From a virus, in the IMG/VR virus record IMGVR_UViG_3300033148_006239, positions 32,001-96,000 of that record: DNA of 64,000 nucleotides; one strand, 5' to 3'. Positions 6,777 to 32,669 of the stretch are shown here, one piece after another. Numbering within the stretch: position 1 is the stretch's first letter; each line of letters starts with the position of its first letter. The notes below the pieces were generated by a model. It was not told where the DNA came from and ran no database searches. It saw only the letters and a program-made list of their open reading frames with translations. The position numbers and the translations under genes are program-made.

Positions 6777-7067
6777 TTAATTTAAATCTCTTGTTATAAC
6801 GTCTGCTTTAAACTCGTTTTGACTAATTGTATAATGAATATCAATTACAACACAATTCTTTAATCTATGCTCTTTGATAAATTTTTCATTTAAAAAATAA
6901 TCAAGAGATTTATTTAATTCCCAATTATAATTGGCATGAATTGTAACAATAAATTGTTTCTCTAGTTGATTATCTTTTATTCTAAATAAATTAGTTTTCA
7001 TATTAATTTCTTTCCCAGACACTAGGTCTATTATTCCAAAATCCTGTTTTAATAGGACTATATCCAT
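6777..7067 (-). CDS. Hypothetical protein (true start probably near 7003)
   Basis: Fills the gap between the methyltransferase and dnaE. Confidence 0.55.
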   Translation of the reverse strand: MDIVLLKQDFGIIDLVSGKEINMKTNLFRIKDNQLEKQFIVTIHANYNWELNKSLDYFLNEKFIKEHRLKNCVVIDIHYTISQNEFKADVITRDLN

Positions 7068-7794
7068 AATCTTTCAATATAAAACTAAATAACTTTGATA
7101 AAGATCTCCTTGAATATAATTTTCCTTCATATATTGTTTCATTAAAATGTCCTGTTTGTACAATATTAAATCCATTTGCAACTACAAATATTCTTGGATT
7201 ACATTGTACTATAATAGACTCTAAATGATCGATTGTATTTTCTATATGTTCAAAATATTCACTACAAAAAGCAATGTCACATTCAGATAATTTACTATAA
7301 TTATGTTCTATTTTTATATTGTCATTTTTTCTTGCAACAAATCTAGCTATTTTATATTGCTTTGATTGTTTTAAATTTGTACCAATAATATTTGCCTCTG
7401 AATAAGCTTCAGACAATGCACATGTTGTAAATCCTATACCACATCCAAAGTCTATAACTGTTTCTATATCCTCATAATTTAATGTTGCTAATCTTTTAAC
7501 ATAATTTTTAGAATCAAAAAGCCATCCATATAAAGCTATTGCTAAATAATATGATCCATCATATACTGAATAATCAGGTATTGCTAATTTCAAAGATCGA
7601 TACCAACGATTTATATATTTAAATCTTGACTCAAATGGATCAAAATTATTTCCTTCTTTAATTTCATCTATTGCAAGTTCTTCATTTTTATTAATTTCCT
7701 CTTCTGTAATATCATTAAATAATCCCATTATAATTTTTTTAAAATATTTTTTTGTAATTTTTTGATTTGAATTTAAAAAATTAATATCGTGCAT
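7003..7794 (-). CDS. Class I SAM-dependent methyltransferase
   Basis: VIDFGCGIG motif I; CSEYFEHI post-motif. Confidence 0.85.
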   Translation of the reverse strand: MHDINFLNSNQKITKKYFKKIIMGLFNDITEEEINKNEELAIDEIKEGNNFDPFESRFKYINRWYRSLKLAIPDYSVYDGSYYLAIALYGWLFDSKNYVKRLATLNYEDIETVIDFGCGIGFTTCALSEAYSEANIIGTNLKQSKQYKIARFVARKNDNIKIEHNYSKLSECDIAFCSEYFEHIENTIDHLESIIVQCNPRIFVVANGFNIVQTGHFNETIYEGKLYSRRSLSKLFSFILKDYGYSPIKTGFWNNRPSVWERN

Positions 7795-8808
7795 TTATTC
7801 ATCCATAAATAATGATTTTTCATAATCTGATAATCTATTAAAACTATCTCTATCTGAACTAAAATTGATCCAATCATTTGGGTCATTTATTGGTAATCCT
7901 AATTGATCTTCTAAAGTCTTTTTATCAGTACAGCTTTGATTAAAAGTTGAATAATCTGTACCTGAAGAATGTCTACCGCATGATGAAAATAAACATCCAA
8001 AAGCATTACTTAAATGATCATCTTTTGAATAAGTACATTTTTTTGATCTATCACATCCAGGTCTTAACGTATCTGCAATCAAACTTAATCCTAACTTTTC
8101 GATTTTATATCTAATCAACCAATGTAATCCAACAATAAATTCTTCTTCACAAAATTGCATTCTTCTATTACACTGACCCATCAATGCTAATAAATTTTGT
8201 GTAAAATGATAAGGATGATGATAACTCATAGGTAATACAGATCTAGCTGCTTGCCATGTACCTTGATCTTCTTTAACTATCATTTCATAAATATCTTTCA
8301 TTTGTTTAAAATGTTCGATAATAATATCTCTTAATTGTGCATCTTCTTCAAATAATTCTTTATAATATGTATATAAAATAATTGATGCATCTAATTTATT
8401 ATTGTCTCTACAACCGCTTGACCCAAACCCAGTTCCTATTCTTGCTCTTGCGTGTTGATCAAAACAATGTCGTGGTAAACCTGTAACTTTAAAAGTAAAC
8501 GTAACTGATTCTAAAGCTGTTGGTAATGTATTACCAGTCAAAGCAGATAATACAACAAAATATCTATTCAATGGATCTAATTCATTCCATTTATTAATAT
8601 AATCATCATTACCCCATGTTGCAGTAGCTATTGCAAAAATTGATTTATATGGATTTTCATTATAATCAATTATTTCAACATCAAGTTTTTCACACCCAAA
8701 ATATATATATGTCTCTTTTACAGGTCTTTCAGATGGCAATGTTCCCATTGCTTCTCTTAATTCATTAATTCTTTCATTTGTCATATTTACTCCTTCATAC
8801 TTTCCCAA
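7795..8808 (-). CDS. Divergent ThyX-like (flavin-dependent thymidylate synthase fold) protein
   Basis: ALESVTFTFKVTGLPRHCFDQHARAR...RD and QAARSVLP, plus a Cys-rich C-terminus. Canonical RHR...SxRY appears as RAR...GCRD. Likely start is MTNE (~8784). Confidence 0.85.
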   Translation of the reverse strand: MGKYEGVNMTNERINELREAMGTLPSERPVKETYIYFGCEKLDVEIIDYNENPYKSIFAIATATWGNDDYINKWNELDPLNRYFVVLSALTGNTLPTALESVTFTFKVTGLPRHCFDQHARARIGTGFGSSGCRDNNKLDASIILYTYYKELFEEDAQLRDIIIEHFKQMKDIYEMIVKEDQGTWQAARSVLPMSYHHPYHFTQNLLALMGQCNRRMQFCEEEFIVGLHWLIRYKIEKLGLSLIADTLRPGCDRSKKCTYSKDDHLSNAFGCLFSSCGRHSSGTDYSTFNQSCTDKKTLEDQLGLPINDPNDWINFSSDRDSFNRLSDYEKSLFMDE

Positions 8809-9761
8809 ATTTTATCTATTATATCTGCATAATTTTGATATTCTATAGAGTATTCATCATAAATTCCTTCAAACATTTCTTCTAGATAATCCATATCACA
8901 TATATGATCACCTAAATAATCTCCAGTATCATGTATATTAATACTATTATTCCAACCGTATGTACATTTTATATAATCAACTATATCTTCAAATTTAACA
9001 GGCACACCTTTGGCTAAATTAATACTTTTATGAATATACTTTTTTGTTATTAACAAATTTTTAGTATATTCATATTCAGTAAATGCATATATATCTAATA
9101 TAATTGACAATAACTTTGAAAAATCATCGATATAAAAATAATCTTTATATTTATTATATTCTAAATAGATATCAAGTTTCTCTTTTTTATGAAAACGAAT
9201 ATGTCTTAGTATTAAATTTATCATACTTGAATTATCGTAAGGATAATCACCACATACAAAAACAGGTCTAACATTAAACCAATCAATATCTTTATTTATA
9301 AATAAAATATCTTCAGCTGCTTTTTTAGTTATACCATATAACGAAGGATGATTTTCAAATGGTTTAGCGTTATTGCAAAATCCACCAATAGAAGTATCAA
9401 ATTCAAATGGATCAAATATAGTTGTGCTACTAAAATTGATTAAAGGTAAATCGAACTCTCTACATATTTTAATAATATTCTGTGTCCCTAAAACGTTTGT
9501 TAAAATAGTTTCTTCTTCATTGTTTATACATCTATGTGTTCCTACAACTGCGGCTATATGTATAATAGCATCAGGTTTCCAATCATTAATTGCATTTCTC
9601 ATTTGAGTATAATCTTTAACATTAAAATGAAATCTTTCTGTATCTAATCCGTCATTATAAGTTGGATAAATATCTGGCATAATATCATATTTATGACTTA
9701 ATTGTTTATCTAAGCCACGTGCAATCATTCCATTATGACCTGTTAAAAATAATTTATACAT
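8787..9761 (-). CDS. Extended SDR, NAD-dependent NDP-sugar epimerase/dehydratase/reductase
   Basis: TGHNGMIA Rossmann motif, IIHIAAVVG, TNVLGT, FSST and catalytic YGITK (YxxxK). Confidence 0.9.
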   Translation of the reverse strand: MYKLFLTGHNGMIARGLDKQLSHKYDIMPDIYPTYNDGLDTERFHFNVKDYTQMRNAINDWKPDAIIHIAAVVGTHRCINNEEETILTNVLGTQNIIKICREFDLPLINFSSTTIFDPFEFDTSIGGFCNNAKPFENHPSLYGITKKAAEDILFINKDIDWFNVRPVFVCGDYPYDNSSMINLILRHIRFHKKEKLDIYLEYNKYKDYFYIDDFSKLLSIILDIYAFTEYEYTKNLLITKKYIHKSINLAKGVPVKFEDIVDYIKCTYGWNNSINIHDTGDYLGDHICDMDYLEEMFEGIYDEYSIEYQNYADIIDKIWESMKE

Positions 9762-9771
9762 TTATTTTACC

Positions 9772-10278
9772 TCAATCATCGTCGGGATATGCACCTCTAG
9801 AATACCAAGAATCATCATCAAGATCATTATTGATAACATCATTCATATCATCGCAAATCTCCATAAAATTTTGTAATTTATTAACACAAGCGTCAATATT
9901 ATTTGCCGATGTATTTATTTCAATAAAATTCGCCTTTAGTTTATTGACAATATCAATGAAAATTGTTTGTTGATAAAATAGACTGCGTCTTGAAATAGTA
10001 TGACACTTCATTTCATCAGTAGATTCAATTCTCTCAAGAAAATCATTCGCATTTACTATACATAAAACTATTACAGAATGTTTACAAATATCTTTACTTA
10101 TTTTATATAAAATATCATTATCATGTTCTCTTTTATAAACTTTATTATATACTAATTGTGAAAGAATACTTCTGTCGTGACAAACATATTGATAATTATT
10201 TTGTAATTCAAAATTACGTCTCAATGTTGATTTACCTGACTTATCAATACCTTCAAAGAATATTAATTTACTCATCAA
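9772..10278 (-). CDS. Thymidylate-kinase-like dNMP kinase
   Basis: FFEGIDKSGKST P-loop and DRSILSQLVY motif. Confidence 0.88.
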   Translation of the reverse strand: MMSKLIFFEGIDKSGKSTLRRNFELQNNYQYVCHDRSILSQLVYNKVYKREHDNDILYKISKDICKHSVIVLCIVNANDFLERIESTDEMKCHTISRRSLFYQQTIFIDIVNKLKANFIEINTSANNIDACVNKLQNFMEICDDMNDVINNDLDDDSWYSRGAYPDDD

Positions 10279-10486
10279 TACCTGCTTTTGTTACTGTAAA
10301 ATCTAATTTAATTTTTTCAATTATTTTTTTTGGTTTAATATAAATATCAACATAATTATCATTATAATTATCGTTATCGTTTAAATCAAATTCAAAATCA
10401 TCAATAATATCTTCATCTTTTAAGTCTTGCAAAAGCAATAATATTTTAATTTGAAATATAAAAAAATCAATATTAAATTTACTCAT
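10268..10486 (-). CDS. Small protein resembling the tail-sheath C-terminal segment
   Basis: VDIYIKPKKIIEKIKLDFTVTKAG resembles the C-terminal strand motif of T4-type sheath proteins. Confidence 0.5.
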   Translation of the reverse strand: MSKFNIDFFIFQIKILLLLQDLKDEDIIDDFEFDLNDNDNYNDNYVDIYIKPKKIIEKIKLDFTVTKAGIDE

Positions 10487-11057
10487 TAGTGTATGCCTTA
10501 TAAAGAGTATCTAATATATGTTTATAATCATCTACACTCATTCCACCATAAGATAAAACATAATTAGGATGATTTATTGGAAAAACAATTGCTTCTCTAT
10601 CATTATATTCAAATATAGATTCTTTATATAATTCTGCATCAAAAAATTTAGCAACTTGTTTACCTAAAGGAACGATTACTTTTGGTTTTAAAATCTGTAT
10701 TTCTTTTAATAGAAATCTATTACCACATTTATTAATTAATCTTTCATCAATCTTATTATTTTTTGTACTGCATTTAACAATATTTGTTATTGTACATTCA
10801 TTTAAATAATTGATCATTCTTAAAAATTCTAATCCAAAACCTCCATCAAAAGCAAACGTACCATATATCCCTCTAACATTTGATGGATTCATACCAACAA
10901 ATAAGAAATTATTTCCTATATGTAATCCTTTTAATTTACCAAACCCATATCTTATATCTTCTGTATTAAATTCTTCATCGCATAAATTTTTACATCGTTT
11001 ACATGTGCATAATCCGTAATAAAGTTTGTGAATCTTACTTTTCATATTTACTTTCAT
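10479..11057 (-). CDS. Uracil-DNA glycosylase superfamily protein (family 4-like, Fe-S)
   Basis: CKRCKNLC, FVGMNP, TNIVKC, KPKVIVPLG and HPNY motifs. Confidence 0.88.
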   Translation of the reverse strand: MKVNMKSKIHKLYYGLCTCKRCKNLCDEEFNTEDIRYGFGKLKGLHIGNNFLFVGMNPSNVRGIYGTFAFDGGFGLEFLRMINYLNECTITNIVKCSTKNNKIDERLINKCGNRFLLKEIQILKPKVIVPLGKQVAKFFDAELYKESIFEYNDREAIVFPINHPNYVLSYGGMSVDDYKHILDTLYKAYTNE

Positions 11058-12064
11058 AAATTACTCATTATAGTATCAAAAGTAAAAAATGGAATAATAG
11101 TATCAATCTTTTTAATTCTTTCAATATACATATTGTTATAAGGTGTTATTTTCAAATAAACATCTACAGGCATTGATTTTGCAATCTTAATTGCATTATC
11201 TGCATCGTCTTCGACAACAAAAGATACATTTTTTAAATCTTTAATTATTCTATGCTCTTTCTTTTCATCCCAAAAAATCATATCAATAGGTAAATTATTA
11301 CTTGTTATCCATTTTAAAGTATCAGAATAGATTCTACTATATTTATGATATGGTCGTGCAGTTATTAATACAGTTATATAATCTTTTTTATATAAATATT
11401 GTAAAAATTCCTTTGCTCCAGGAACAAAATCCATTTCGGCTTTAACACCTGATTGTCTATATCTATCTTTTAATATTAATTGTACTTCTAAATCAAGATT
11501 TAAAAAATCATTAAAATCAATTATTTTTTCATTAATAGAAACATTATCTAACATACCATAATTAGACATAATATTCGAATATTCATTAATCCATTTAATA
11601 AAAAAATCAGGCCAATCAGCAATAACTCCATCAATGTCAATAACTGCAATCTTTTTATTTGAATCGATATTGTTTATAAATTTTTCTTGATTATACCTTG
11701 CTTCAACAACAGTTGTTTTATTTAAAAAATTCTTATAAAAATCTTCATCATTAATTCCCCACAAATTACACAACCCAACAAGAAACTTAAATATATCAAT
11801 CAATTCTTCAGAAATATTTGATCTAATTATATCGCCATCAAATTTTCTATGCATTTTAAATGGCATTTCATGTAATAATTCACCTATTTCAGAATAAAGA
11901 TGTAAACAAAATTCCTTAGACCAAAAAACTAACTCTTCTTCAGTTAAATTATTTATATCAAATCCTTTATCTTTAAAAACTTGATTATTAAAGTCAAGTT
12001 GTTTTTCCCAAATTTCTTTTAATTTATTCATTTCCCCACCCATAAGCCATAACGTGATCAACAA
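11054..12064 (-). CDS. MazG/dimeric dUTPase-like dNTP pyrophosphatase fused to a HAD nucleotidase
   Basis: N-domain has SEIGEL...EELIDIFKF (ExxE...ExxD). C-domain has DIDGVIAD, ITAR and VEDD HAD motifs. Probable start MNKLKE at ~12031. Confidence 0.88.
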   Translation of the reverse strand: MLITLWLMGGEMNKLKEIWEKQLDFNNQVFKDKGFDINNLTEEELVFWSKEFCLHLYSEIGELLHEMPFKMHRKFDGDIIRSNISEELIDIFKFLVGLCNLWGINDEDFYKNFLNKTTVVEARYNQEKFINNIDSNKKIAVIDIDGVIADWPDFFIKWINEYSNIMSNYGMLDNVSINEKIIDFNDFLNLDLEVQLILKDRYRQSGVKAEMDFVPGAKEFLQYLYKKDYITVLITARPYHKYSRIYSDTLKWITSNNLPIDMIFWDEKKEHRIIKDLKNVSFVVEDDADNAIKIAKSMPVDVYLKITPYNNMYIERIKKIDTIIPFFTFDTIMSNL

Positions 12065-12989
12065 AATCTTTTAACTTATCACACAATGTGTGAAACTGTA
12101 TAGAATGATCCCATGACGCATATCTACCAAAACATTTTATATCACCAATATGATCTAAACAATGATTCTCTAAAAAATAGCCATACTTTAACGTACCATA
12201 TTGTAATATACCACTAGACATAAAAATCTTTTTAAGTATACAGACATTATCTCGATCAATTGATTCATACGTAATTGTTTTATCTTTATTATCTGTAACT
12301 CTTATAAAAGGAATATCTTTATCAGCATAATATATATAATCATAATCGTTAAACATCAAACCATTTATTTTAACAAAATATTTGCTTTTATATTCATATT
12401 TAAAATAAGGATTTACATCAAATAATTTACAAAAATCAGGAGCAGGAATTGTATTAATAATATATTCATGACTAGTTCTAATTGAATAATTATTATCTAA
12501 ATGAATTGCAACGTGATTGTTATCATAATAGTCAACACGTTCAATTAAACTGTTATAATATGTAGTACCTTGAGACCACAAAAATCTACAAATTGTTTCA
12601 ATAAATTCTTTCTGTGAAAAATCAAAATATTCAAAATTATTACCTCCCGACGCGGTACTATCATAGTGTTTTCCATCTCGTGTAATTCTTGAATACTCTA
12701 ATAAAAATTCTTTTGTTGCATAATCTTTAATTTCATCATTGTAACAGAAACCAATGTTTGTCTTTTTAACATTTTGCTTGATATTAAATTGTCTTAAAAT
12801 CTTTTCTACTTCATCAGAAACATGTAAATATCTCGGACCAAAAGCGTTCTCATATTGACCATATAATTTTCCAATTATAGTTACATTACAATTGAGATAT
12901 TGTTTTAAATAATAAGCCGTTAATAGTGCTGCAGGACCAGCACCAATAATAATTATATCATTCATAATTAATTTCTTATCAATGGGCAT
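12024..12989 (-). CDS. FAD-dependent enzyme, UDP-galactopyranose-mutase-like
   Basis: IIGAGPAAL FAD motif. GPRYLH, NTIP, YYADKDIPFIRVT and FGRYASW correspond to Glf-type GPHIFH, PYTRI and GRLxxY motifs. Confidence 0.75.
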   Translation of the reverse strand: MPIDKKLIMNDIIIIGAGPAALLTAYYLKQYLNCNVTIIGKLYGQYENAFGPRYLHVSDEVEKILRQFNIKQNVKKTNIGFCYNDEIKDYATKEFLLEYSRITRDGKHYDSTASGGNNFEYFDFSQKEFIETICRFLWSQGTTYYNSLIERVDYYDNNHVAIHLDNNYSIRTSHEYIINTIPAPDFCKLFDVNPYFKYEYKSKYFVKINGLMFNDYDYIYYADKDIPFIRVTDNKDKTITYESIDRDNVCILKKIFMSSGILQYGTLKYGYFLENHCLDHIGDIKCFGRYASWDHSIQFHTLCDKLKDFVDHVMAYGWGNE

Positions 12990-13536
12990 AATTAATTTGC
13001 CTCATTACGTTATTAGTTTTTACAAATAAACAAGGTTGTACATCATCATAATCAATAAAATAATTTCTTATACATTTCCTAACGTTTTCAAATTCATTAG
13101 TAATTGATGAAATACATTTACTTTTAATATTTGCAATTTCAGTAGCGCTAAATCCCTTTAAATAAAGTTCAATAATTTCTTTTGCCTTTACTCTATCTAA
13201 ATTATTTAACATTCTTTCAAAATCAATTGTAACATCTGCATCAGGTTCATCATAAGCAATTTGATCTTGATAATTATCTAAATTGGCGTTCTTATATTTA
13301 TAATTTCTATAAGCGTTGTCCATAATTTTAAATGAACTAAAACTCAATGTTTGATTTATAAAACCAGATAAACTACCCTTTTCTTCATCAAAGTTATTGA
13401 TATACTTTAATAATAATATTGATAATTCCTGCTTCGCGTCGTCAAACTCAACTGGAGATTTATGTGAAACTTTATATGCATATTTACATATCAGTCTATC
13501 ATAATCTCTAAATACTTGGTTAATGTCAATAATCAT
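12979..13536 (-). CDS. Phage RNA polymerase sigma factor (sigma70/ECF-like)
   Basis: Region 2 FDDAKQE...FDEEKGSLSGF; region 4 HTH LKGFSATEIA. Confidence 0.85.
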   Translation of the reverse strand: MIIDINQVFRDYDRLICKYAYKVSHKSPVEFDDAKQELSILLLKYINNFDEEKGSLSGFINQTLSFSSFKIMDNAYRNYKYKNANLDNYQDQIAYDEPDADVTIDFERMLNNLDRVKAKEIIELYLKGFSATEIANIKSKCISSITNEFENVRKCIRNYFIDYDDVQPCLFVKTNNVMRQINYAH

Positions 13537-13607: not shown

Positions 13608-14744
13608 TTAAATATCAATACCAGTTTCAAGTTTCACAAATTCAACTTCTGATTTTTTTTCAAGTTTTTTATGATCTCTCTTAATTGAATTAACTAATTT
13701 AATCATTGCTTTACTCTTCTTTAATCCTGCACAAATCATATACCCAGTAATTTTATCGACATTACTAGAATAGAAATAACTAACATACGAATTTGGAGTT
13801 CGAGTCATCACTTCAATTCTTTTAGAAATTAATTCTGCTTTTGTATTCATTGTATGTTTATCACTTCCCTTAGGTAAGACAATTGCCAATATATAATTCG
13901 TTGTTGTATTTATATCAAATGATCCATAATACATTGATTCTGTATTTAATTTACGTATAAACTCATCATCAATACCTTCATCCAATTGAAAATATCTGAA
14001 ATCAACAAACCCAGAATTTTTATTATAAAGTACCCTTTTTAAATCAGACATATCTATATTCGCATTATTACCACTTAAAAAGTCATAATTTGATTTAAAT
14101 GTAAAATCATAAAACATTTTTAAAGGATTAATAATGTGATAATTAATTCTATCATAATGTGTTTTCTTCATTTTAAATCTATCATATAGTAATTGATTAT
14201 CCGCAAGAATAACATTGACATAATCAATATCTTTCAAAAAGATATTTTCAATAAACCAATTAATTAATTTTATTGTATTGTTTTTTCTCTTAATACCTTC
14301 ATTCTTTTTTGGAGTTGAAATAATTACTAATATTTTTTTATTTAATTCAACCAATAGCTCAACAATAACTCTTGTAATTCCATTTCCACTACCCCCACCA
14401 CCTGATGTATAAATAATTATATATTCATCATCATCAACAATTCTTGGACCGCATATTTCTCCATCGACATCTTCATATTTTTCAAATAAAAATTTATTTA
14501 TTTTATCAATCTTATTTCTAGCTATCATTTCACCTTTATCAGGATCATTTCCAGTTCCATCTACACCTAAAAGCATAACATCTTCAATACTAAATAATTT
14601 GATATTATCAACTGCAGTATTAGATACAACAGTTTTTGTATTTTTAAAAAATTTACTATGTTGCTTTGCAAGCATAGTCCCACATTGACCATTACCAAAT
14701 ATTTTATCACTTATGGTTAAATCTAAAAACTGTTCCATTTCCAT
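13608..14744 (-). CDS. Tubulin/FtsZ-family GTPase (TubZ/PhuZ-like)
   Basis: GNGQCG T1 loop, GTGNDPDKG, tubulin signature SGGGGSGNG, PKKNEG, DN and IDMSDLKRVL T7 loop. Confidence 0.9.
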   Translation of the reverse strand: MEMEQFLDLTISDKIFGNGQCGTMLAKQHSKFFKNTKTVVSNTAVDNIKLFSIEDVMLLGVDGTGNDPDKGEMIARNKIDKINKFLFEKYEDVDGEICGPRIVDDDEYIIIYTSGGGGSGNGITRVIVELLVELNKKILVIISTPKKNEGIKRKNNTIKLINWFIENIFLKDIDYVNVILADNQLLYDRFKMKKTHYDRINYHIINPLKMFYDFTFKSNYDFLSGNNANIDMSDLKRVLYNKNSGFVDFRYFQLDEGIDDEFIRKLNTESMYYGSFDINTTTNYILAIVLPKGSDKHTMNTKAELISKRIEVMTRTPNSYVSYFYSSNVDKITGYMICAGLKKSKAMIKLVNSIKRDHKKLEKKSEVEFVKLETGIDI

Positions 14745-20027: not shown

Positions 20028-20801
20028 TTACTCATATAATGTTTGATAATATTTATGATATATTGAAGCATATTTTATTATATGATTACTTTTCATATAA
20101 TCATCTATTTGAACTTCTTCATTCTTATGAGATAATGATTCATCACCATGATCAATCTCTTTCAAATTTCTATTCATAATAGATACAATTGAAAAATCAC
20201 CAAATATATCTTCACCTGTTTGCATATCACTATTAGAACATACAAATATAGGACAATTATTCATAAATTTATTTCTTAAAAATGTTTCAACTTCTCTTAA
20301 AACAAAATCACTACCTTTTTTAATATAAACTTTATCAAATTCATCTACTAATAATACGTCTGCATTTTTTATCATATATAAATACATAGCAGTACTATCA
20401 TCTGGTTCATTAGACATTTCATTGTATAATGCATTTACATAATTACTCAATAAAAAATAAACTACCTTTTTACCTCTCGTCATAAATCTTTTGCCTATTT
20501 CACACAATGTAGTTGTTTTACCTACCGAATAATCACCATAAATAAAAAATCCTCTGCCATTTATGTAATTCTCTTCAAAATTACTAAAATATTTCTTTAT
20601 TTCATCTTTTAAAACTAAATCATAATTTACATGCCAAAATTCTTTAGGTATCTTACTTTTATATAATTCTTTTAACCATCTAAACGCCTGCATACAATCA
20701 CAATCATCTTTCTTATAAAATCCTAATCCTTTACATTGTTTATGATTATCTACTATTTTTGTCTTTAAAAACTTTAAATAATCAAGATCTTTTTTTGTCA
20801 T
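20028..20801 (-). CDS. DnaC/IstB-like helicase loader ATPase
   Basis: N-terminal Zn motif, GDYSVGKT Walker A, LLVDEFDK Walker B, CSN sensor. Confidence 0.88.
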   Translation of the reverse strand: MTKKDLDYLKFLKTKIVDNHKQCKGLGFYKKDDCDCMQAFRWLKELYKSKIPKEFWHVNYDLVLKDEIKKYFSNFEENYINGRGFFIYGDYSVGKTTTLCEIGKRFMTRGKKVVYFLLSNYVNALYNEMSNEPDDSTAMYLYMIKNADVLLVDEFDKVYIKKGSDFVLREVETFLRNKFMNNCPIFVCSNSDMQTGEDIFGDFSIVSIMNRNLKEIDHGDESLSHKNEEVQIDDYMKSNHIIKYASIYHKYYQTLYE

Positions 20802-20991
20802 CTAATTTTGCCTTCATATTATCTATAATTTCTTTATCAAACATTGCAGCACAATTGACACATACATAACAGTTAAATATATTTTCTACTATTTCTTTGT
20901 GATACATATAAGGTCTTGTTATTGGTTTCTCTGTCAATTCCTTATATCCACAAATAGGACAAGGATAATTAAATTCATTTTCTTTTGTCAT
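20782..20991 (-). CDS. Small Zn-ribbon protein
   Basis: CPICG...CVNC. Confidence 0.65.
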   Translation of the reverse strand: MTKENEFNYPCPICGYKELTEKPITRPYMYHKEIVENIFNCYVCVNCAAMFDKEIIDNMKAKLDDKKRS

Positions 20992-21201
20992 TTAAAACTC
21001 ATTATCTACTATTTTCTGAATTTCATTATTAATACGATCCCACCATTCATCAAATGTTTCGTTTAGTTTATAACTTAAAAAATCAAATGAATCTTGAACT
21101 ATATCTTGTTCATTAAAAAACCAATTTATAAGCTGTTTATCTACCATTTTAGCTCTTTGATATCTAACTCTTCTTTCACTTGAGCTTTCTTCTGAAATCA
21201 T
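20992..21201 (-). CDS. Hypothetical protein
   Basis: ORF abutting its neighbours. Confidence 0.6.
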   Translation of the reverse strand: MISEESSSERRVRYQRAKMVDKQLINWFFNEQDIVQDSFDFLSYKLNETFDEWWDRINNEIQKIVDNEF

Positions 21202-21222
21202 TCGTCTAAACCTTGTTTTGCA

Positions 21223-21321
21223 TCAAATCAAAATTACTGTCGTATAAAATACTGACCAAATAATAATTAACAATATTATAAGTATTTTAACACATTTATT
21301 TTTAATTCCATTACCATTCAT
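21223..21321 (-). CDS. Small single-TM peptide (32 aa), not in track
   Basis: Manual translation MNGNGIKNKCVKILIILLIIIWSVFYTTVILI; ATG directly follows the upstream stop. Confidence 0.45.
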   Translation of the reverse strand: MNGNGIKNKCVKILIILLIIIWSVFYTTVILI

Positions 21322-21654
21322 TTACTTCTCCAATATATCTATTGCATAATCTAAATATTCTACAATAGATTTATCAACATTGATATCAATATCATATTTG
21401 AATGATTTCATGTGGCTTATACTAAGATGAAATTCTTTCAATTCATTTATTTTATAGATTAATTTTAATTTCTCTATATTAGAAATATTATCTACATTTA
21501 GTTTCTTAATCTCAAAAGTCCGTGCATGATTTTTAAAAATCTTTAAAGAGATTGCATCTGTATCTAAAGAAAGTTTAAGAATCTGCCAACTATTCTTTGT
21601 AATTCTTTTTGATTTGATACAATCTATTGTTTTAAGATAAAAATTTAGATTCAT
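21322..21654 (-). CDS. Hypothetical protein, first gene of replication arm
   Basis: Downstream of the promoter-motif-containing gap. Confidence 0.6.
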   Translation of the reverse strand: MNLNFYLKTIDCIKSKRITKNSWQILKLSLDTDAISLKIFKNHARTFEIKKLNVDNISNIEKLKLIYKINELKEFHLSISHMKSFKYDIDINVDKSIVEYLDYAIDILEK

Positions 21655-21749
21655 TTTATACCTTAGTTTCTCAATTTCTTTTCATTTAAAGACGTAGTGA
21701 AACGTAATATTATATATTGATAAGATTTTTTCTTGGACGGCTATTGAAT

Positions 21750-21776
21750 ATAACATCAAAGTTGACTTTTTAACAT
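21750..21776 (-). promoter_or_regulatory. Candidate phage-sigma promoter ATGTTAAA-N13-TGTTAT (copy 3)
   Basis: Exact motif in the gap between the lysis and replication genes. Confidence 0.65.
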
Positions 21777-21783
21777 GCGTGTT

Positions 21784-22314
21784 TTAAAAAAGTGATAAAT
21801 TTACTTTAATACCAAAAGAATATATTACAGAATTAAATAACGCATATCCTAAATTTCCAAAGACACCAACTTTTAACCTTTTATATTGTATAGGCATCCA
21901 GCTCAATCCTGCTGATCCAAAGTAATATTGATTGAACCCTATATGTGTAAATATATCAAAGTTCAAAAGTGGATTCTTCTTGCGACTTAAAACTTCAATT
22001 AAAACAATCATTGTTTCTATTTCATTAACTAAGTCATCTATTGTATTAACTTTTTCTTCTAGCAATAAGATACTTTTACTGAATTCTGTAGCCATTAATT
22101 CATGTTTACTATTAAGTAATTCAAAATCATTTAATAAAATAGAATATGTACCATTTAAATTATCATATTTCTGTGCTAAATCAATGTATTCATTATATAA
22201 CAGTGTATAACATTGTTTTAATTCTTCGTGATTTTCTAAATCAACTTCAGGGTACAGAAGGTCTGAAATCATTAATAACACTATTGATATAATCAATATT
22301 ATTACTTGTTTCAT
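21784..22314 (-). CDS. Spanin-like envelope protein with C-terminal beta-strand anchor
   Basis: N-terminal hydrophobic helix, coiled coil, four amphipathic strands ending in Phe. Overlaps the upstream TM/coiled-coil gene in the lysis cluster. Confidence 0.55.
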   Translation of the reverse strand: MKQVIILIISIVLLMISDLLYPEVDLENHEELKQCYTLLYNEYIDLAQKYDNLNGTYSILLNDFELLNSKHELMATEFSKSILLLEEKVNTIDDLVNEIETMIVLIEVLSRKKNPLLNFDIFTHIGFNQYYFGSAGLSWMPIQYKRLKVGVFGNLGYALFNSVIYSFGIKVNLSLF

Positions 22315-22633
22315 GTAAAATTTCCTTATAATTTTTAATCTTTTCTAAATTTTCATAAGCGAATTGCAATTCGTTATTAATATACTTAACTGTATTTGCT
22401 ATATATTCGATATCACATTTTTGTTTTTCTAAAATATTATTAATTTTTATATCAAGTCTATTTAGATTCGCATTGACATAATCATCGTTAGTAATATTTT
22501 TATCATCATATAAAGTAAAATTTCCTCTTATAAGCCATCCAATAAATAATAATACGATAATTCCTATTATAACTAATACAATTTTGAAATATTTTTTATT
22601 TGTTTTAAAATATGTTTCATCTAAATTGATCAT
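22247..22633 (-). CDS. i-spanin-like protein (N-terminal TM + coiled coil)
   Basis: TM helix IVLVIIGIIVLLFIGWLI; position in the lysis cluster. Confidence 0.55.
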   Translation of the reverse strand: MINLDETYFKTNKKYFKIVLVIIGIIVLLFIGWLIRGNFTLYDDKNITNDDYVNANLNRLDIKINNILEKQKCDIEYIANTVKYINNELQFAYENLEKIKNYKEILHETSNNIDYINSVINDFRPSVP

Positions 22634-23100
22634 TAACGTTCCTTTCTAATATCTTCTATTAAAAGCTCTATTAATTTATCAATTTTATCATCTTTATTAT
22701 TTGTTTCTGGCGTATAAAAGATAGTAAAAAATGATATTATAAATGCAATTAAAACGCCACCAATGACAGAAGCCCAAATTCCCATTCTCCATTTTTGTTT
22801 TTTTTCTATATCTGTATCTTTTTGTTCTATTATTTTAACTCTATTTACTAAATCGTTTGTTTTACTTGTGAGTTCTTTATAGCCTTCACATGTTTCATAA
22901 GGTTGCTGAAACGCACCCGCTGTTAATTCATCTTTTAAGCTTTGTATTAATTTTCTTATTTCTTGAAATTCACTTGTTGCACTTTCTTTATTCTGAAGAA
23001 GAAAGTTTACATTTTCTTCTAATGCTGTTAATTTTTTATCTAAATCATTGATCTTACTAAAAATCTTGCCAATTGTATGGGTTGTTTCAGCATCTGTCAT
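22633..23100 (-). CDS. Coiled-coil membrane protein (holin/antiholin-like)
   Basis: Coiled coil then a single C-proximal TM; lysis cluster. Confidence 0.5.
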   Translation of the reverse strand: MTDAETTHTIGKIFSKINDLDKKLTALEENVNFLLQNKESATSEFQEIRKLIQSLKDELTAGAFQQPYETCEGYKELTSKTNDLVNRVKIIEQKDTDIEKKQKWRMGIWASVIGGVLIAFIISFFTIFYTPETNNKDDKIDKLIELLIEDIRKER

Positions 23101-23507
23101 TATTTTTTCCCTATGAACTTTTGTAAGAGATCAGTAATCGCTTTAGTATCTATTTTTTCTGTACTTTTTAATGCTTTAAGTAAGCCAGTAAGACCTACAA
23201 ATGTACTTAGTGTCATCCACCACCATTGATATTTATCAATAAATATTCCAAGAGTCTCTATAGCTTTTTTAAAATGTTCAGCACCAGTAATTAAATACAA
23301 TATCATGCTTATTAAAAACACTATAAAAATTAACAAAAACGTTATAATAGAAGTGAATTTACCAACCTTTTTAATTCTCATTGTTAAAATTTCAGAATCT
23401 TTTTTTAATTTATCTAAATCTGTTTCATCTATATCAATATCAACTTTTTTTATTTCTTTGTCTTTATCGTCTTTAAATGTTATATTCATTTTAGCAAATT
23501 TTTCCAT
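23100..23507 (-). CDS. Holin candidate (2 TM)
   Basis: Two TM helices; directly downstream of the endolysin. Confidence 0.55.
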   Translation of the reverse strand: MEKFAKMNITFKDDKDKEIKKVDIDIDETDLDKLKKDSEILTMRIKKVGKFTSIITFLLIFIVFLISMILYLITGAEHFKKAIETLGIFIDKYQWWWMTLSTFVGLTGLLKALKSTEKIDTKAITDLLQKFIGKK

Positions 23508-24271
23508 GTGTTTTTACCTACAATACCATCAGAAGTTAAATCATTGTTCTCCTGAAATTTTTTGACAGCCTTTGAAGTGTTTTTACCAAAAACCCCATCA
23601 AAATCTAAACCTAATAGCATTTGAATATCCTTGACATTATTCTGGATCGTACCAAACCTTAATGTTGGGTTAAAATTACATTGATCATCTAAAAAATTTA
23701 AATAATCTTTGCCATGCCATACTGTAAATGGAAATTCATCTTCATAACTCATATCGGCATAATTCATTAAAGATTTCCAATAATTACCATTCCAGCCACC
23801 AAAGGGTCCTAAACATCCTGCACTATTTTTACCAATATTTTCTCCTATACCCATTGCATGGCAATTGACACCTGTATTTCTAGCATATTCAAAAATATCA
23901 CCATCATCTATTATATAGTTTCGATTATAGTCTCTAACGATCCATATTTTTTCATCTTTTGCACGTAGTGCTTTGTATTTTCTATGATGTAACCCTTTAA
24001 CAAATTTATGTTGTCCAAATGCTACATGTGCTGTACCTTTTGAATTTAATGGATTTTCTGAATAATATAATCCGGGATCAACTGTTCCGGGCATTATTTC
24101 TATTATATCGTCTTTTAAACATATAATTAAATCATTATATTTATCAATTTCATCATTATTAACAATAATTCTATCTCTATTACATGTAACACCTTTTAGA
24201 CATAAAATATTTAATTGATTTCTTTCGATATATTCAAAAGACAATGCTTTAATAAATTCTGCAAAAAACAT
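23486..24271 (-). CDS. Endolysin with His...SAGC catalytic domain and C-terminal peptidoglycan-binding domain
   Basis: DGVFGKNTSKAVKKFQ...DGIVGKNTW (PG_binding_1); GVNCHAMG...SAGC. Confidence 0.85.
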   Translation of the reverse strand: MFFAEFIKALSFEYIERNQLNILCLKGVTCNRDRIIVNNDEIDKYNDLIICLKDDIIEIMPGTVDPGLYYSENPLNSKGTAHVAFGQHKFVKGLHHRKYKALRAKDEKIWIVRDYNRNYIIDDGDIFEYARNTGVNCHAMGIGENIGKNSAGCLGPFGGWNGNYWKSLMNYADMSYEDEFPFTVWHGKDYLNFLDDQCNFNPTLRFGTIQNNVKDIQMLLGLDFDGVFGKNTSKAVKKFQENNDLTSDGIVGKNTWKNLLK

Positions 24272-24285
24272 TATTAGCTCCTAAA

Positions 24286-24525
24286 TTAAGCAGATTCTAA
24301 TTCTGTAATATAAGTACTAAGTTCAGTATTTGTTCGATATGCTCCCATTTTTTCCCATGCAACATCGGCAACACCCTGAACTGTAGCCAGCGCTGTTGCT
24401 TCATCAATTGCATCAACCATAATTGAAGCTACCATAGTCATACGTTTTTCTTCGATAATATCTACCATCCATTTATCGGTATATATATCGGTTCTTAATT
24501 GGTATAGTTTTAATGTGAAAGTCAT
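24286..24525 (-). CDS. Small protein after tail fibre (possible fibre chaperone)
   Basis: Coupled to the tail fibre stop. Confidence 0.5.
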   Translation of the reverse strand: MTFTLKLYQLRTDIYTDKWMVDIIEEKRMTMVASIMVDAIDEATALATVQGVADVAWEKMGAYRTNTELSTYITELESA

Positions 24526-27500
24526 TAATAATGGATCTCCTTTATAGTAAAGTTATAATTTGTCGTAGTTAATGGATTTAAATTGTTAAAAAATATACTA
24601 TAAAATTCTGTAAAAGAAGTATAATCTAACGGTGGATAATCTACTTTAACCCCTTCTAGTGATCCATTATCAACAACTTCAATAGCTGAAGATTTCCATT
24701 CTGCAGAACCCGTAGAATCCGCCTGAATGGGATAAACCCAATAAATTTCAGAACTACTATCACCCCTCATTTGTTTATGAAGAGAAACTATACCATTATT
24801 ATTGTTTATAGTATACCAAACACTACTTTGAGCATTAAATAATGTTTTCTTTGCAAAAAATCCTGAATATATAGGAAATAATAATTCATGTCTATTAACA
24901 GCAAAAGTAGTTCTTATAAAATTCCACTGTCCATGATTAAAAATAAAATTATTATCTTTAGATAAATCTGTAGTATAACCAGATCCAATTATTTTATTAC
25001 TTCCTGCAGAATTAATAAATGAAAACGGAAAACCAAAAAGAAAAACATAATTATCTGTAATATTTGTTTTACCTAAATCAGTATAAGTTCCAGGGATAAC
25101 TCCTCCAGGACGATGTGCTAGCAATATTTTACCTGTAGTATTAGTAAAATTTGTTCCTCCAAATGTGTTTCCTGATCCTGCTTCTGATAAAATATCTACA
25201 GTTATTGTTTGATCTGAAGAATGTGTCCCTCCAGAAATTGCTGTAATTTGTACAGTGTGCCAAATATTATTTTGATCGAAGGAAGACTCCGATTCAGCAT
25301 TTTCTTGTATAATAGCTATATCTCCAATTTTCCATTGATATTTATTACTTCTTGCATGTGAGTTTAAAGTTATTGTTTCACTAGTATCTCCACCTTGACC
25401 TGTTCCCGTTAAAGCTACAATAGATTCGGGACCACGATATACTCCCATACCTTTAAATTCATTTGTTGAAGAATCAAATAATGCGTAAACGGCCATATTA
25501 ATTTCAGATTGTGTATATCCAGTAATTGGCATATTATCTAATATTCCACCCGTATCAGTTAATAAATCAATAGTTGTTGTTTCAAAATCAAATGTCCATT
25601 TTGCTATATTAGTTATAAATACTAATTCTTTTTGTGTATTAAAAACAAAACCACTTGATCCATTACCAAAATGATTTTTTAATAAATAAAACTTTGATTC
25701 ATCTGCAAGATCATAATATCCACCTCCATGTACAACATTTTCTAACATACCATGAAATGGAAGATTTGTATTTGATATTTTACCATTTGCATCTAATTGT
25801 GGAATCCCGTTAGGTTGATTTATATCAGTTATTTTAGCCGGAGTAACTACGTTATCTTTAATATGTCTTGTTTCAACTTGATCACTTGCTAATTCTGATA
25901 ATCCTTCAAACCAATGAATATTTTTGGCAATCTTCATACTAGAAACGCCAACAACTAAACCATCATTTAAATTATCTTTTCTATATAAAATAATAGGTCT
26001 ATTATATGCAGTAGTAATCGCCGTTAATGTTGAATTTGTAGCTGTTATTATTCTAATATTTAATCCTGTAGTTACATATTCACTTACATCAATATCTGCA
26101 TAAAAGCAATCATTATTTTCTAATGTTACAGAATCACCATCTTTACTTACAAAATGTATTCTTATGAATCTTTCTGGATTATTTTTAATATGTATTGTAA
26201 TATATCCACCAACACCTTGTTGAAGATCAGTGTTGTTTATTGGACCTGCTTGATCATCTATTAAAAATAATCTTGTTTGTTTTATATTAAAAGGAAACGT
26301 TAAAGATTTTTCAAAACCAATAAATTGATAATGCTCAGTTGCACCAGATTTCCAAAAACTATTTGAAAATATCTCATAATTACCCGATGTTGTAATTAAT
26401 GTATCTGGGCCAGATACAGCACCTGTTGATATTTCTCTATAATGTAAATTACCTGTAGATTGATCATCAAAAACAATTGAAATATTATCAATTGTATCAT
26501 TCCAAACACCACCTAAGGTACCTAATACATTACTACCAGCATCAAACGACACTAACACTATCGCAGCGGCACTATTATCGGATATAACTCTTAATACATC
26601 GACTTGATTTGTTGACGTATTAAACCCTGTAATAAGACAATAATCAGTTCCTGTATTATTATTACAAAATACCAAATTAGCCATAACAAAATTTGATGTT
26701 GATAATGTCCGTTCTGTTCCTAATGCTAAAGCATCGTCAATTGTATTTGTTAAAAATGTAGTACTTGCATCACTATATGCTCCAAATAAAAACAATGACC
26801 CATTATAATCTATACTTACACCATCATCTGGAACAACTGATGTAGATATCGTAGTCAATGTTCCTAATGTATCTGTTGTATTAACAATGGCTCTAAAAGC
26901 GAGTGAAGAGCTTTGTGCCCATATAATACCAATTTTATCATTAGCAGTATCATAAGCTATATCATAGGCTTTTTTATATCCAGAATAATGAGGATTATCA
27001 TTTAGTGTCGCAATAACATCTTGAACTGGATATGTTCCAAATGCATTAATATTATCAATTGAATTAGTCAATGTCAGTGTTAAAACTCCACCTGAATCAT
27101 CTAAAGATAATTTTCTTGATCTTATTTCAATTTCTGCAGTTGATGACGTTTGATGCAAATAAAAAACTATATAATCTGTTCCAACAATAATTGTTTTAGG
27201 ACTATGAACAATGCCCTCGTCGACTATAAGTTCGTTACTATACGTATCTGTTGTTTTTTTATAGATTCTACAAATTATTTTATGATAATCAGGATCTATT
27301 TCACTTTGAATTGCGTAAAAATGATATGTACCATCTGTGTTAATTGATGAATCTATCGGATTTAATATTTCTTTATTTGCACTATATAATTTATCATTAT
27401 CTTTGTCAAAATATAAAGAAATATTTTCAGATCCAAAACTATAATATCTACCATATAATTCACTTAAATTTGTATCAAAAGCTTCTACAGTTTCTAATCT

Positions 27501-30899: not shown

Positions 30900-32669
30900 T
30901 TAACCCTTTACTATATCAACAAATTCTGAATCTAATCCATCTAAATCGAACGAATTTAAAGAATTAAGTACTTGAGTAACTTCTTTAAACTCTGAAATTG
31001 CTTGTTTTGTTTGCTCTTTATCTTCATCTTCTTTTATAAATAATTCAATAAAATTTATTAAAGAAGTTATATTTGCAGGATCTAAACCACCAGCAACTAA
31101 AAAAATTCCTCCAATATAATTAGAATCTCTTTTTTGTTTATTACTAATTCCATTTGTATTTGCGATATCACTAATAAATTTATTTATTCCACCAAGTTGT
31201 GGTTGAATTGTTTTTATAACTAAAAATTCGCCATTAATAGACAATGTTAATTTATCCAATAAAATTAATATTCTATTTCTTATTGAATCAACTACGTTTG
31301 TTACAGTTTCTATTTTTTCTGATAGTGAATTTGAAATTGCATCAAGAAGATTTTCTTTTCTACCTATTTGTTCATATAGACTATCAATAAAAAATTTTAT
31401 TTCATTTTTTAATGTTTCTATTTCAGGAATTAACCATTGTAAAGTTGTTCCAAACCAATCACCATCACCAAAATTTCCAAAAAATCTTTTCTTTAAGAAA
31501 TCGACACCATCAGTTCTTTGTAATGGAACAATTTGGCTTGTTTCATTTGTATTAATTATTTGTGTTGCATCAAAATTACCAAAAGTTGTTCTATCGATAT
31601 GTCTTCCGAGTAAATCAGTAAATACTAATGTTTCAATTAACGATAAAGATTCTCGCAATTTAGCTGCAACTTGTGGAGCTGTATAAAGTTCTATTGCTGC
31701 TGTATATTCATGACCATATAAAATAGGTATATCATCAATACGATTAATATCTAGTTCTTTTTCACCAATATTTTTATATATACCATCTTCGGGTAAATTA
31801 AGATCAACTAATATATCTGTAACTTTATTTGATTCAATATCTCTAGCTTTTATTGATGTAACTTTAATCCAATGTGGAAAACTCAATTTATCCCATTCTA
31901 ATGATAATGAATTTTTATTAAAAATACTTGTAAATCTGAATTTTAAATTCGCATCAATTTCTTTTTGTACTTGTATATTTGAAAATGTTATAAAATTTAT
32001 ATCAAATAATCTCAAAAATTCTTTTAATTGTGCAGTTACTTCATCGATACCTGGTGCCATTGCTAAAATAGCAATTCCACCAACATATTCATTAGAATTA
32101 AAACTAGGAATGTAATCTCTTTCAAATTCATTATCTGTATTAAATGATTCTCTAAATCTGTTCCAAAACGAATCAAATTTTGTAGAAGAATCAATTTCTT
32201 TATTATCGTCTGTCATAGCACGTGTAATTCTACCTGTTTCATCTCTTGAAACACTTATTGTATCTTCTGCTTGAATATTTATATCAATTGGTGATTTATA
32301 CATTATATGCATTCCACCAGAACCACCAATTTTATCAATAGTATTATTTATAATAGTTCTTGAAGTATCAATTAGTTTTTCTGCGGGATCAATTACTTTT
32401 CCACCAATAAATGTTTCTATTTTATTAATTATTTCAACACCAACTCTAGTTGGTTCGTATATTATTTCAATTAATCCTTTTGCTGCGTTAATAACTTCTT
32501 CTAATTCATTTAAAAAGCTCAAATCTGGTGCAATTATCTTTTTCCAATTTTTATCTTGATCTGCCTTTGAATTATTTTTATTATCTTCTAAAAATTTCTC
32601 AGCATTTTCATTTGTATATAGTTCTTGTTTAAAATTGACATGTGTTAAAGTTTCAAATTCTTTAAGCAT
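30900..32669 (-). CDS. Hypothetical baseplate-region protein
   Basis: 589-aa ORF within the baseplate operon; internal repeat YVGGIAILA / YIGGIFLVA. Confidence 0.7.
   Translation of the reverse strand: MLKEFETLTHVNFKQELYTNENAEKFLEDNKNNSKADQDKNWKKIIAPDLSFLNELEEVINAAKGLIEIIYEPTRVGVEIINKIETFIGGKVIDPAEKLIDTSRTIINNTIDKIGGSGGMHIMYKSPIDINIQAEDTISVSRDETGRITRAMTDDNKEIDSSTKFDSFWNRFRESFNTDNEFERDYIPSFNSNEYVGGIAILAMAPGIDEVTAQLKEFLRLFDINFITFSNIQVQKEIDANLKFRFTSIFNKNSLSLEWDKLSFPHWIKVTSIKARDIESNKVTDILVDLNLPEDGIYKNIGEKELDINRIDDIPILYGHEYTAAIELYTAPQVAAKLRESLSLIETLVFTDLLGRHIDRTTFGNFDATQIINTNETSQIVPLQRTDGVDFLKKRFFGNFGDGDWFGTTLQWLIPEIETLKNEIKFFIDSLYEQIGRKENLLDAISNSLSEKIETVTNVVDSIRNRILILLDKLTLSINGEFLVIKTIQPQLGGINKFISDIANTNGISNKQKRDSNYIGGIFLVAGGLDPANITSLINFIELFIKEDEDKEQTKQAISEFKEVTQVLNSLNSFDLDGLDSEFVDIVKG

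Follow-up and report, generated by a model that had tools for sequence, protein, structure and literature searches.

Is a phage protein that databases label as the flavin-dependent thymidylate synthase ThyX still a thymidylate synthase when its catalytic signature has been rewritten? This question is raised by a minus-strand gene in the 64,000-nucleotide stretch of DNA analysed here (hereafter the window), which covers positions 32,001 to 96,000 of the IMG/VR record IMGVR_UViG_3300033148_006239, the complete 105,324-bp genome of an uncultured phage with direct terminal repeats. An earlier note, made from the letters of the window, had described the gene product as a ThyX homologue with an altered active site that may not be a dTMP synthase and may be the key modifying enzyme of its genome. 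Following up these proposals, we found that this ThyX-like protein belongs to an essentially virus-only family, in which the part of the site predicted to hold and activate the nucleotide is conserved and the part serving folate and methylene transfer appears replaced. The reading we favour, with belief and doubt in about equal measure, is that of a neofunctionalised ThyX paralogue making a C5-modified pyrimidine nucleotide other than thymidylate.

To our knowledge, all known phage routes to non-canonical pyrimidines begin with ThyA-type paralogues. If true, our reading would add a second, flavin-based branch to pyrimidine-modification chemistry, and perhaps a new DNA base defeating restriction enzymes. 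Automatic annotation calls the family "FAD-dependent thymidylate synthase ThyX", and metabolic readings of viral metagenomes may therefore be wrong where ThyX-labelled proteins are counted as dTMP synthases. Since phages of Gordonia, Mycobacterium smegmatis and Microbacterium that are easy to grow have related gene sets, the question is directly testable.

A predicted ThyX fold with a rewritten active site

The window protein matches the Pfam family Thy1 with an E-value of 4.2e-12 and 46.7 bits, against a curated cut-off of 24.8. An AlphaFold2 model, built on 22 relatives and reaching a mean pLDDT (predicted local distance difference test) of 86, has the ThyX fold, with the core at residues 38-255: it superposes on Mycobacterium tuberculosis ThyX (3gwc; Z 16.4, root-mean-square deviation (rmsd) 3.0 Å over 209 residues), on Thermotoga maritima ThyX (1o26; Z 15.7, rmsd ~3 Å over ~205 residues) and on the polyoxin enzyme PolB (Z 15.2). 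Sequence identity to known ThyX is remote (16-19%). A phmmer search of PDB sequences with the single window protein returned nothing relevant, the family profile reaches T. maritima ThyX at an E-value of only 0.015, and PHROGs holds no family for the protein.

The open reading frame (ORF) was previously placed at 7795-8808. The minus-strand frame itself stands, but its start most likely lies at the ATG at 8784 and not at the TTG at 8808, because the former has AAGGAG six bases upstream and abuts the stop of the upstream gene, which makes a protein of 329 residues. Residue numbers given here follow the 337-residue reading used in the alignments. The motif string QHARARIGTGFGSSGCRD, residues 118-135 in this numbering, was found at window positions 8404-8457, where the earlier note had placed it.

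Active-site positions were assigned by hhalign against canonical ThyX of related phages and by profile alignment against T. maritima ThyX, and counted over 216 non-identical family members, all of which have the altered motif. From the ThyX signature R-H-R-x7-8-S-x-R-Y, only the R-x-R part is retained. The position of His79 is Ala here and A, T, Q, M, V or S in the family, with His in 0/216. That of Ser88, two before the conserved Arg, is G132 (Gly in 200/216), followed by Cys here and by T, S or C across the family, and that of Tyr91 is D135 (Asp in 204/216), followed by N136 (Asn in 199/216). Each loss noticed earlier in the single sequence (of the His of RHR, of the Ser before the conserved Arg and of the Tyr of RY) is thus shared by the family. 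The caveat that the Ser could still align holds for the window protein alone, S131 falling on Ser88 in the HMMER register, but fails for the family, which mostly has Ile there; the Ser that the family conserves, S130 (167/216), lies at a distance of one or two positions from Ser88, and hhalign sets it on the E86/Q position. At the position of His53 (residue 93), in a segment whose alignment is less certain, Asn (97), Lys (48) and Gln (33) prevail among the 216, and His never occurs. Equivalents of His53, His79, Ser88 and Tyr91 are missing in all members, which carry an S-x-G-x-R-D-N loop instead. Being conserved across the family at 30-60% identity, the altered motif is not a chance alteration.

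By contrast with these losses, the arginines and the glutamine that hold nucleotide and flavin in ThyX are kept (Table 1). Arg174 of ThyX activates dUMP (PMC8316439). Both Ser88 and Tyr91, strictly conserved in ThyX and critical to it, are proposed to help the hydroxyl of the carbinolamine leave; flavin oxidation becomes ~1000-fold slower when Tyr91 is mutated, and His53 stacks on folate or reduced flavin and hydrogen-bonds Tyr91 (PMC11940539, PMC8316439). Because the equivalents of Gln75 and of the arginines are conserved while His53, Ser88 and Tyr91 are lost, the alignments indicate that the nucleotide-holding and activating half of the site is retained and the folate and methylene-transfer half replaced.

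Inteins are found in six relatives at five sites, all within conserved motifs: between F116 and D117, 129 and S130, G132 and 133, N136 and 137, and F219 and C220. Four of the five fall within the rewired loop. Inteins are usually placed in this way in essential catalytic sites.

Compared with canonical ThyX, the family further differs by the length of its active-site loop, which carries an invariant G-x-R-D-N, and by the addition of a conserved N-terminal peptide of ~35 residues and a C-terminal extension of ~80 residues. The latter is the Cys-rich extension reported earlier, now seen to be a family trait: among its five Cys in the window protein, C252, C258, C277 and C293 are near-invariant (171-195 of 216) and probably form a metal site. 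The acidic tail that ends the protein is a possible protein-docking peptide. Its D-K-x-L-F-x-E pattern resembles short docking peptides, such as clamp-binding tails or those of the single-stranded DNA-binding (SSB) type, and in one relative (locus L053) the module comes after clamp-loader and clamp genes.

A virus-only family coexisting with canonical ThyX

A word-indexed search recovered 288 relatives of ~320-390 residues at 40-60% identity, and an exhaustive search of 1.84 billion cluster representatives only 142. A pattern scan covering 185,579 genomes of cellular species yielded a single match, on a 9.5-kb contig of a metagenome-assembled genome, and the nearest ESM Atlas clusters are 86-97% viral; on these grounds the ThyX-like family is a virus-specific clade. 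A tblastn search of 50,697 cultured phage records matched neither the ThyX-like protein nor its flavin adenine dinucleotide (FAD)-binding partner described below. Full-text literature searches found no description of the family; where phage genome announcements use the term "ThyX-like", it serves purely as an annotation label.

Of 42 related phage records, 12 contain two Thy1 genes, as do 4 of the 10 estimated to be at least 90% complete. One gene encodes a canonical ThyX of ~200-240 residues (97-235 bits) in which the HE/Q-x-V-RHR-x-AS-xx-Q-x-S-x-RY signature is complete, and the second encodes the long paralogue (29-62 bits). Both often lie 0.2-5 kb apart in one operon, as in record G006, and record G004 shows the row ribonucleotide reductase (RNR), ThyX, dCMP deaminase, kinase, ThyX-like gene and flavoprotein. 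The phylogeny against bona fide ThyX that the earlier note had proposed as a check places the paralogue in a separate clade, split from canonical ThyX by a very long branch (Shimodaira–Hasegawa-like approximate likelihood ratio test (SH-aLRT) 100). The genomes that encode both proteins are spread over at least five paralogue subclades, and the two nearest relatives of the window (L003 and L033) both also encode canonical ThyX. That phage genomes, compact as they are, have kept both genes over the long term speaks for distinct functions of the two types of protein.

Record G004 also contains two dTMP-kinase-like genes, one of 211 residues beside canonical ThyX (L057:3324-3959) and one of 154 residues in the ThyX-like module (L017:17079-17543), which hints at two parallel kinase–synthase pairs. 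In some relatives, a block of ThyX-like, flavoprotein, haloacid dehalogenase (HAD) and kinase genes lies between a pair of divergent ThyA-like genes (Pfam Thymidylat_synt, 32 and 18 bits; L053:9249-9995 and L053:13034-13681; L024 about 9300-9990), these phages holding up to three or four paralogues of pyrimidine-C5 enzymes.

Linked genes

To define the genomic partners, 54 loci of the ThyX-like gene were fetched from IMG/VR and all ORFs within 10 kb of it were clustered (Table 1). The protein of ~300 residues predicted to bind FAD gave PDB profile matches to UDP-galactopyranose mutase (UGM) at 4e-7; its model (pLDDT 86) retrieved the fold of L-amino-acid oxidase, renalase, UGM and nicotine oxidoreductase by Foldseek, with no clear nearest family. 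In the fusion protein, the nearest PDB profiles are dimeric dUTPases for the pyrophosphatase domain and 5'(3')-deoxyribonucleotidase for the HAD domain, and hhalign aligned the former with the T4 gp56 dCTPase/dUTPase (83% probability, E-value 1e-5). A dCMP deaminase lies near the ThyX-like gene in 24/54 loci and RecA in 21/54; in the window's own genome, neither a dCMP deaminase nor a trimeric dUTPase was found. The replicative polymerase beside the module is Pol III alpha, Pol A or Pol B depending on the lineage, which indicates that the module moves as a unit.

Other neighbours were considered as candidate partners. The adjacent methyltransferase was rejected as a core component, given how rarely it accompanies the gene. 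Involvement of a uracil-DNA glycosylase (UDG)-family gene is doubtful, the domain being often fused to the replicative polymerase in relatives.

Table 1 Features of the ThyX-like gene and linked genes (residue counts among 216 family members; locus counts among 54 loci)
Feature	Window position	Strand	Correspondence or basis	Conservation or occurrence
ThyX-like gene	7795..8784	minus	ORF call; 329 residues from ATG at 8784 (337 from TTG at 8808)	
N-terminal motif L-R-x-A-M-G-T-L-P, before the ThyX core	8734..8757	minus	Family alignment	R18, G22, T23, P25 invariant
G-N-T-L-P-x-A-L-E, replacing canonical G-H-E...E-H	8509..8535	minus	hhalign and residue counts	
Rewired loop P-R-H-x-F-D-Q-x-A-R-x-R-x-G-x-x-F-x-S-x-G-x-R-D-N	8401..8472	minus	Alignments	
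Q118			T. maritima Q75	210/216
R121			T. maritima R78	213/216
R123			T. maritima R80	215/216
R134			T. maritima R90	197/216
R189	8242..8244	minus	Arg147 (dUMP phosphate)	216/216
R216			Arg174 (uracil activation)	215/216
Segment R215-R216-x-x-x-C220-E221	8146..8166	minus	Alignment; intein site between F219 and C220 in relatives	
Cys-rich extension C252-x5-C258 ... C277 ... C293	7930..8055	minus	Alignment; low model confidence at 260-290	
Acidic tail D-K-x-L-F-x-E-x	7798..7821	minus	Family alignment	D330, F334 kept in at least 90%
Partner 1: FAD-binding protein, ~300 residues, renalase/amine-oxidase/UGM (GR2) fold	12024..12989	minus		43/54 loci
Partner 2: fusion of dimeric-dUTPase/T4-gp56-like NTP pyrophosphatase (MazG-type) and NT5C-type HAD 5'(3')-deoxyribonucleotidase	11054..12064	minus	Pfam	50/54 loci
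Partner 3: short dTMP-kinase-like P-loop kinase	9772..10278	minus	Pfam Thymidylate_kin	35/54 loci
Extended short-chain dehydrogenase/reductase (SDR), NAD epimerase/dehydratase type	8787..9761	minus	Best solved relatives: dTDP-sugar enzymes	27/54 loci
Class I S-adenosylmethionine methyltransferase, directly downstream	7003..7794	minus		2/54 loci

Proposed function and alternatives

For a neofunctionalised paralogue of this kind, we infer cofactor, substrate, product and partner roles as follows. The protein would still bind FAD and a pyrimidine deoxynucleoside monophosphate, most probably a uracil nucleotide, whose C5 would still be activated through the Arg174-type arginine. What would be lost is the stacking of folate on the flavin (His53) and the acid help in moving the methylene off the flavin carbinolamine (Ser88, Tyr91), the S-x-G-x-R-D-N loop and the Cys4 extension taking the place of this part; it is because the folate and methylene-transfer part is lost and replaced that a C5-modified nucleotide other than dTMP is expected. 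The simplest candidate product is 5-hydroxymethyl-dUMP, which would form if water captured the exocyclic-methylene intermediate, and hydroxylation by flavin and O2 is an alternative. A third, chemically attractive option would be the oxidation of dTMP by reversal of the last ThyX step: with dTMP supplied by the co-encoded canonical ThyX or by the host, oxidised FAD would abstract a hydride from its methyl group, and water or another nucleophile would trap the exocyclic methylene. Folate would then be unneeded, and the second flavoprotein or the Cys4 extension could re-oxidise the flavin. In each case, the linked short kinase may phosphorylate the product, the fusion of a dUTPase/dCTPase-like domain with a 5'-nucleotidase may clear the competing normal nucleotide, and the renalase/UGM-like flavoprotein may act as redox or one-carbon partner. 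Comparable pathways are built around ThyA paralogues in T4, SPO1 and RB69 (PMC13326640, PMC8989533). The ThyX-like protein would be a candidate for the key modifying enzyme, as suggested in the earlier note. More tentatively, the trio of ThyX-like protein, renalase/UGM-like flavoprotein and dNTPase-nucleotidase may be a widespread virus-only pathway by which hundreds of phage lineages write into their DNA a pyrimidine so far undescribed for any ThyX-type enzyme, an extension that we hold possible but would not call probable.

Several observations weigh against a modifying role. The ThyX-like gene is the only Thy1-family gene of this complete genome, in which no ThyA (PF00303) match was found, leaving it as the sole thymidylate-synthase-like gene there as in 6/10 near-complete relatives. 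Neither a GT1 or GT2 glycosyltransferase nor any other enzyme of later hypermodification turned up in this genome. The dNTP operon around the gene, ordinary in look (RNR, kinase and dUTPase-like gene), also fits a plain dTMP synthase, and Asp135 could serve as general acid in place of Tyr91. A product replacing thymine would leave the co-encoded canonical ThyX hard to explain, and dUMP or dTMP, if either were the substrate of the ThyX-like protein, would be degraded by the 5'-nucleotidase domain. Part of this evidence favours a genuine, divergent dTMP synthase, in which Asp135, Asn136 and Ser130 would stand in for Tyr91 and Ser88 with another supply of electrons or one-carbon units, either through electrons delivered by the linked flavoprotein and the Cys4 extension or through formaldehyde instead of folate. 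Beyond being the sole gene of its kind in these genomes, such an enzyme would account for the retention of all nucleotide- and flavin-phosphate-binding arginines and for the dNTP-synthesis setting (class II RNR, dTMP-kinase-like kinase, dUTPase-like domain, and dCMP deaminase in relatives). Moreover, ThyX can methylate dUMP with free formaldehyde via a flavin carbinolamine (PMC8316439), so that loss of the folate-stacking His would be tolerable. We nevertheless judge this explanation rather unlikely, though a serious one. The paralogue has persisted beside canonical ThyX in the same operon and in many lineages, a redundancy unusual in phages; it lacks four residues that ThyX conserves and that mutagenesis marks as important (PMC11940539); and the tightly linked 5'-deoxynucleotidase would set up a futile cycle. 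The earlier suggestion that the protein may not be a dTMP synthase gains indirect support from the family-wide loss of these residues and from the canonical ThyX alongside in 12/42 records, but a dTMP role still fits the genome of the window.

Coexistence with a canonical synthase is best explained by an enzyme directed at dCMP, a flavin counterpart of the T4 pair td and gp42: canonical ThyX would make dTMP, the paralogue a 5-modified dCMP, and the gp56-like domain would convert dCTP to dCMP. In addition to this T4 pattern, the alignment of the fusion's N-terminal domain with gp56 and the new invariant acidic residues D117, D135, D140 and E221 in or around the substrate loop point in this direction, the latter recalling the Asn-to-Asp switch by which ThyA-type enzymes are redirected to dCMP (PMC13326640). 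However, the near-invariant equivalent of Arg174, which stabilises deprotonated uracil N3/O4, and that of Gln75 are kept, and an Arg in this place is a better match for uracil than for cytosine with its amino group; among solved structures, dUTPases are the best relatives of the pyrophosphatase domain, and the dCMP deaminase nearby in 24 loci also fits poorly, all of which makes a dCMP enzyme improbable in our view. A role outside DNA synthesis, be it modification of RNA or DNA polymers, production of a nucleotide-derived small molecule, or service as a non-catalytic subunit or regulator, seems to us very improbable. The Cys4 extension and acidic tail could dock nucleic acid or protein, and PolB is a precedent for the recruitment of a ThyX paralogue into secondary metabolism (PMC5954106). 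Against this, the invariant active-site arginines and the targeting of motifs by inteins point to catalysis, and the gene always lies within a replication and nucleotide-metabolism block, beside a dNMP kinase and a dNTPase.

Sugar hypermodification, which the SDR and the UGM-like protein had brought to mind, was unsupported: the genome lacks GT1 and GT2 enzymes, including among the ten largest ORFs outside the window, and the flavoprotein is as near to renalase and amine oxidases as to UGM.

Comparison with known systems and a cultured analogue

Canonical ThyX, as represented by T. maritima TM0449, M. tuberculosis ThyX and PBCV-1 A674R (PF02511, EC 2.1.1.148), shares with the window family the predicted fold and R78, R80, R90, R147, R174 and Q75. 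PolB, the UMP/dUMP C5-methylase of polyoxin biosynthesis (4p5a/4p5b), has the same fold and is a neofunctionalised ThyX paralogue found beside a housekeeping ThyX (PMC5954106). Unlike the window family, it still methylates and belongs to a Streptomyces antibiotic cluster; the viral genes lie in replication and nucleotide-metabolism blocks, not in a nucleoside-antibiotic cluster, and carry another motif set. The T4 gp42 dCMP hydroxymethylase, the SPO1-type dUMP hydroxymethylase and the 5-hydroxy-dCMP synthases RB69 gp48 and DLP3 gp80 follow the same logic, with an altered thymidylate-synthase paralogue, a cognate dNMP kinase and a dNTPase leading to a non-canonical pyrimidine, but on the unrelated ThyA fold with its catalytic Cys, whereas the window protein is predicted to have the ThyX fold. 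RB69 gp48 uses a flavin (PMC13326640). The likeness to these ThyA-family modifiers concerns the working of the proposed system, not family membership.

Weak matches of the HAD domain led to Gordonia phages of cluster DV. In Gordonia phage Jalebi (OL455895, 48217-58649), one block encodes an "oxidoreductase", an NT5C-type phosphatase, a methyltransferase, a FabG-type SDR, DnaE, MazG and a 398-residue "ThyX-like thymidylate synthase" (gp82). The oxidoreductase aligns over its full length with the FAD-protein family and shares the motifs G-P/A-R/Q-Y-L-H and G-R-Y-x-x-W. Like the window family, gp82 is long, lacks His53, has RQR (no His79) and Phe for Tyr91, and ends in a Cys-rich tail of the form [R/K]-P-x-C-x5-C, with K in gp82; unlike it, gp82 keeps the signature S-x-R (SQESTRF, i.e. 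STRF). Its Pfam score is 109 bits against 47 bits for the window protein, and hhalign relates it to canonical ThyX with 98.9% probability and to the window family with 94%. By its sequence, gp82 appears intermediate between canonical ThyX and the window family; tblastn with the window protein did not retrieve it. In a published gene table, these gene families occur together across the actinobacteriophages of clusters D, DG, DV and EF (PMC11385102). We regard this actinobacteriophage block as an analogous set of putative function.

Other features of the window

The window has a G+C content of ~27%, with nearly every gene on the minus strand. A UDG-superfamily protein (10479-11057, minus) carries the motif G-M-N-P-S, which looks closer to the Asn-type (MUG/SMUG-like) than to the family-4 motif, which we take to be GE(A/G)PG; relatives carry this domain as a fusion at the N-terminus of Pol III alpha or at the C-terminus of Pol A, a placement suggesting that it works attached to the replisome. 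The nucleotide block is immediately preceded, on its upstream side, by genes for a tubulin/FtsZ-family GTPase (13608-14744, minus) and a sigma-70 region-2 protein (12979-13536, minus). Finally, the class II RNR of this phage (L066:1715-6214; G000 20715-25214) carries an intein with an HNH endonuclease.

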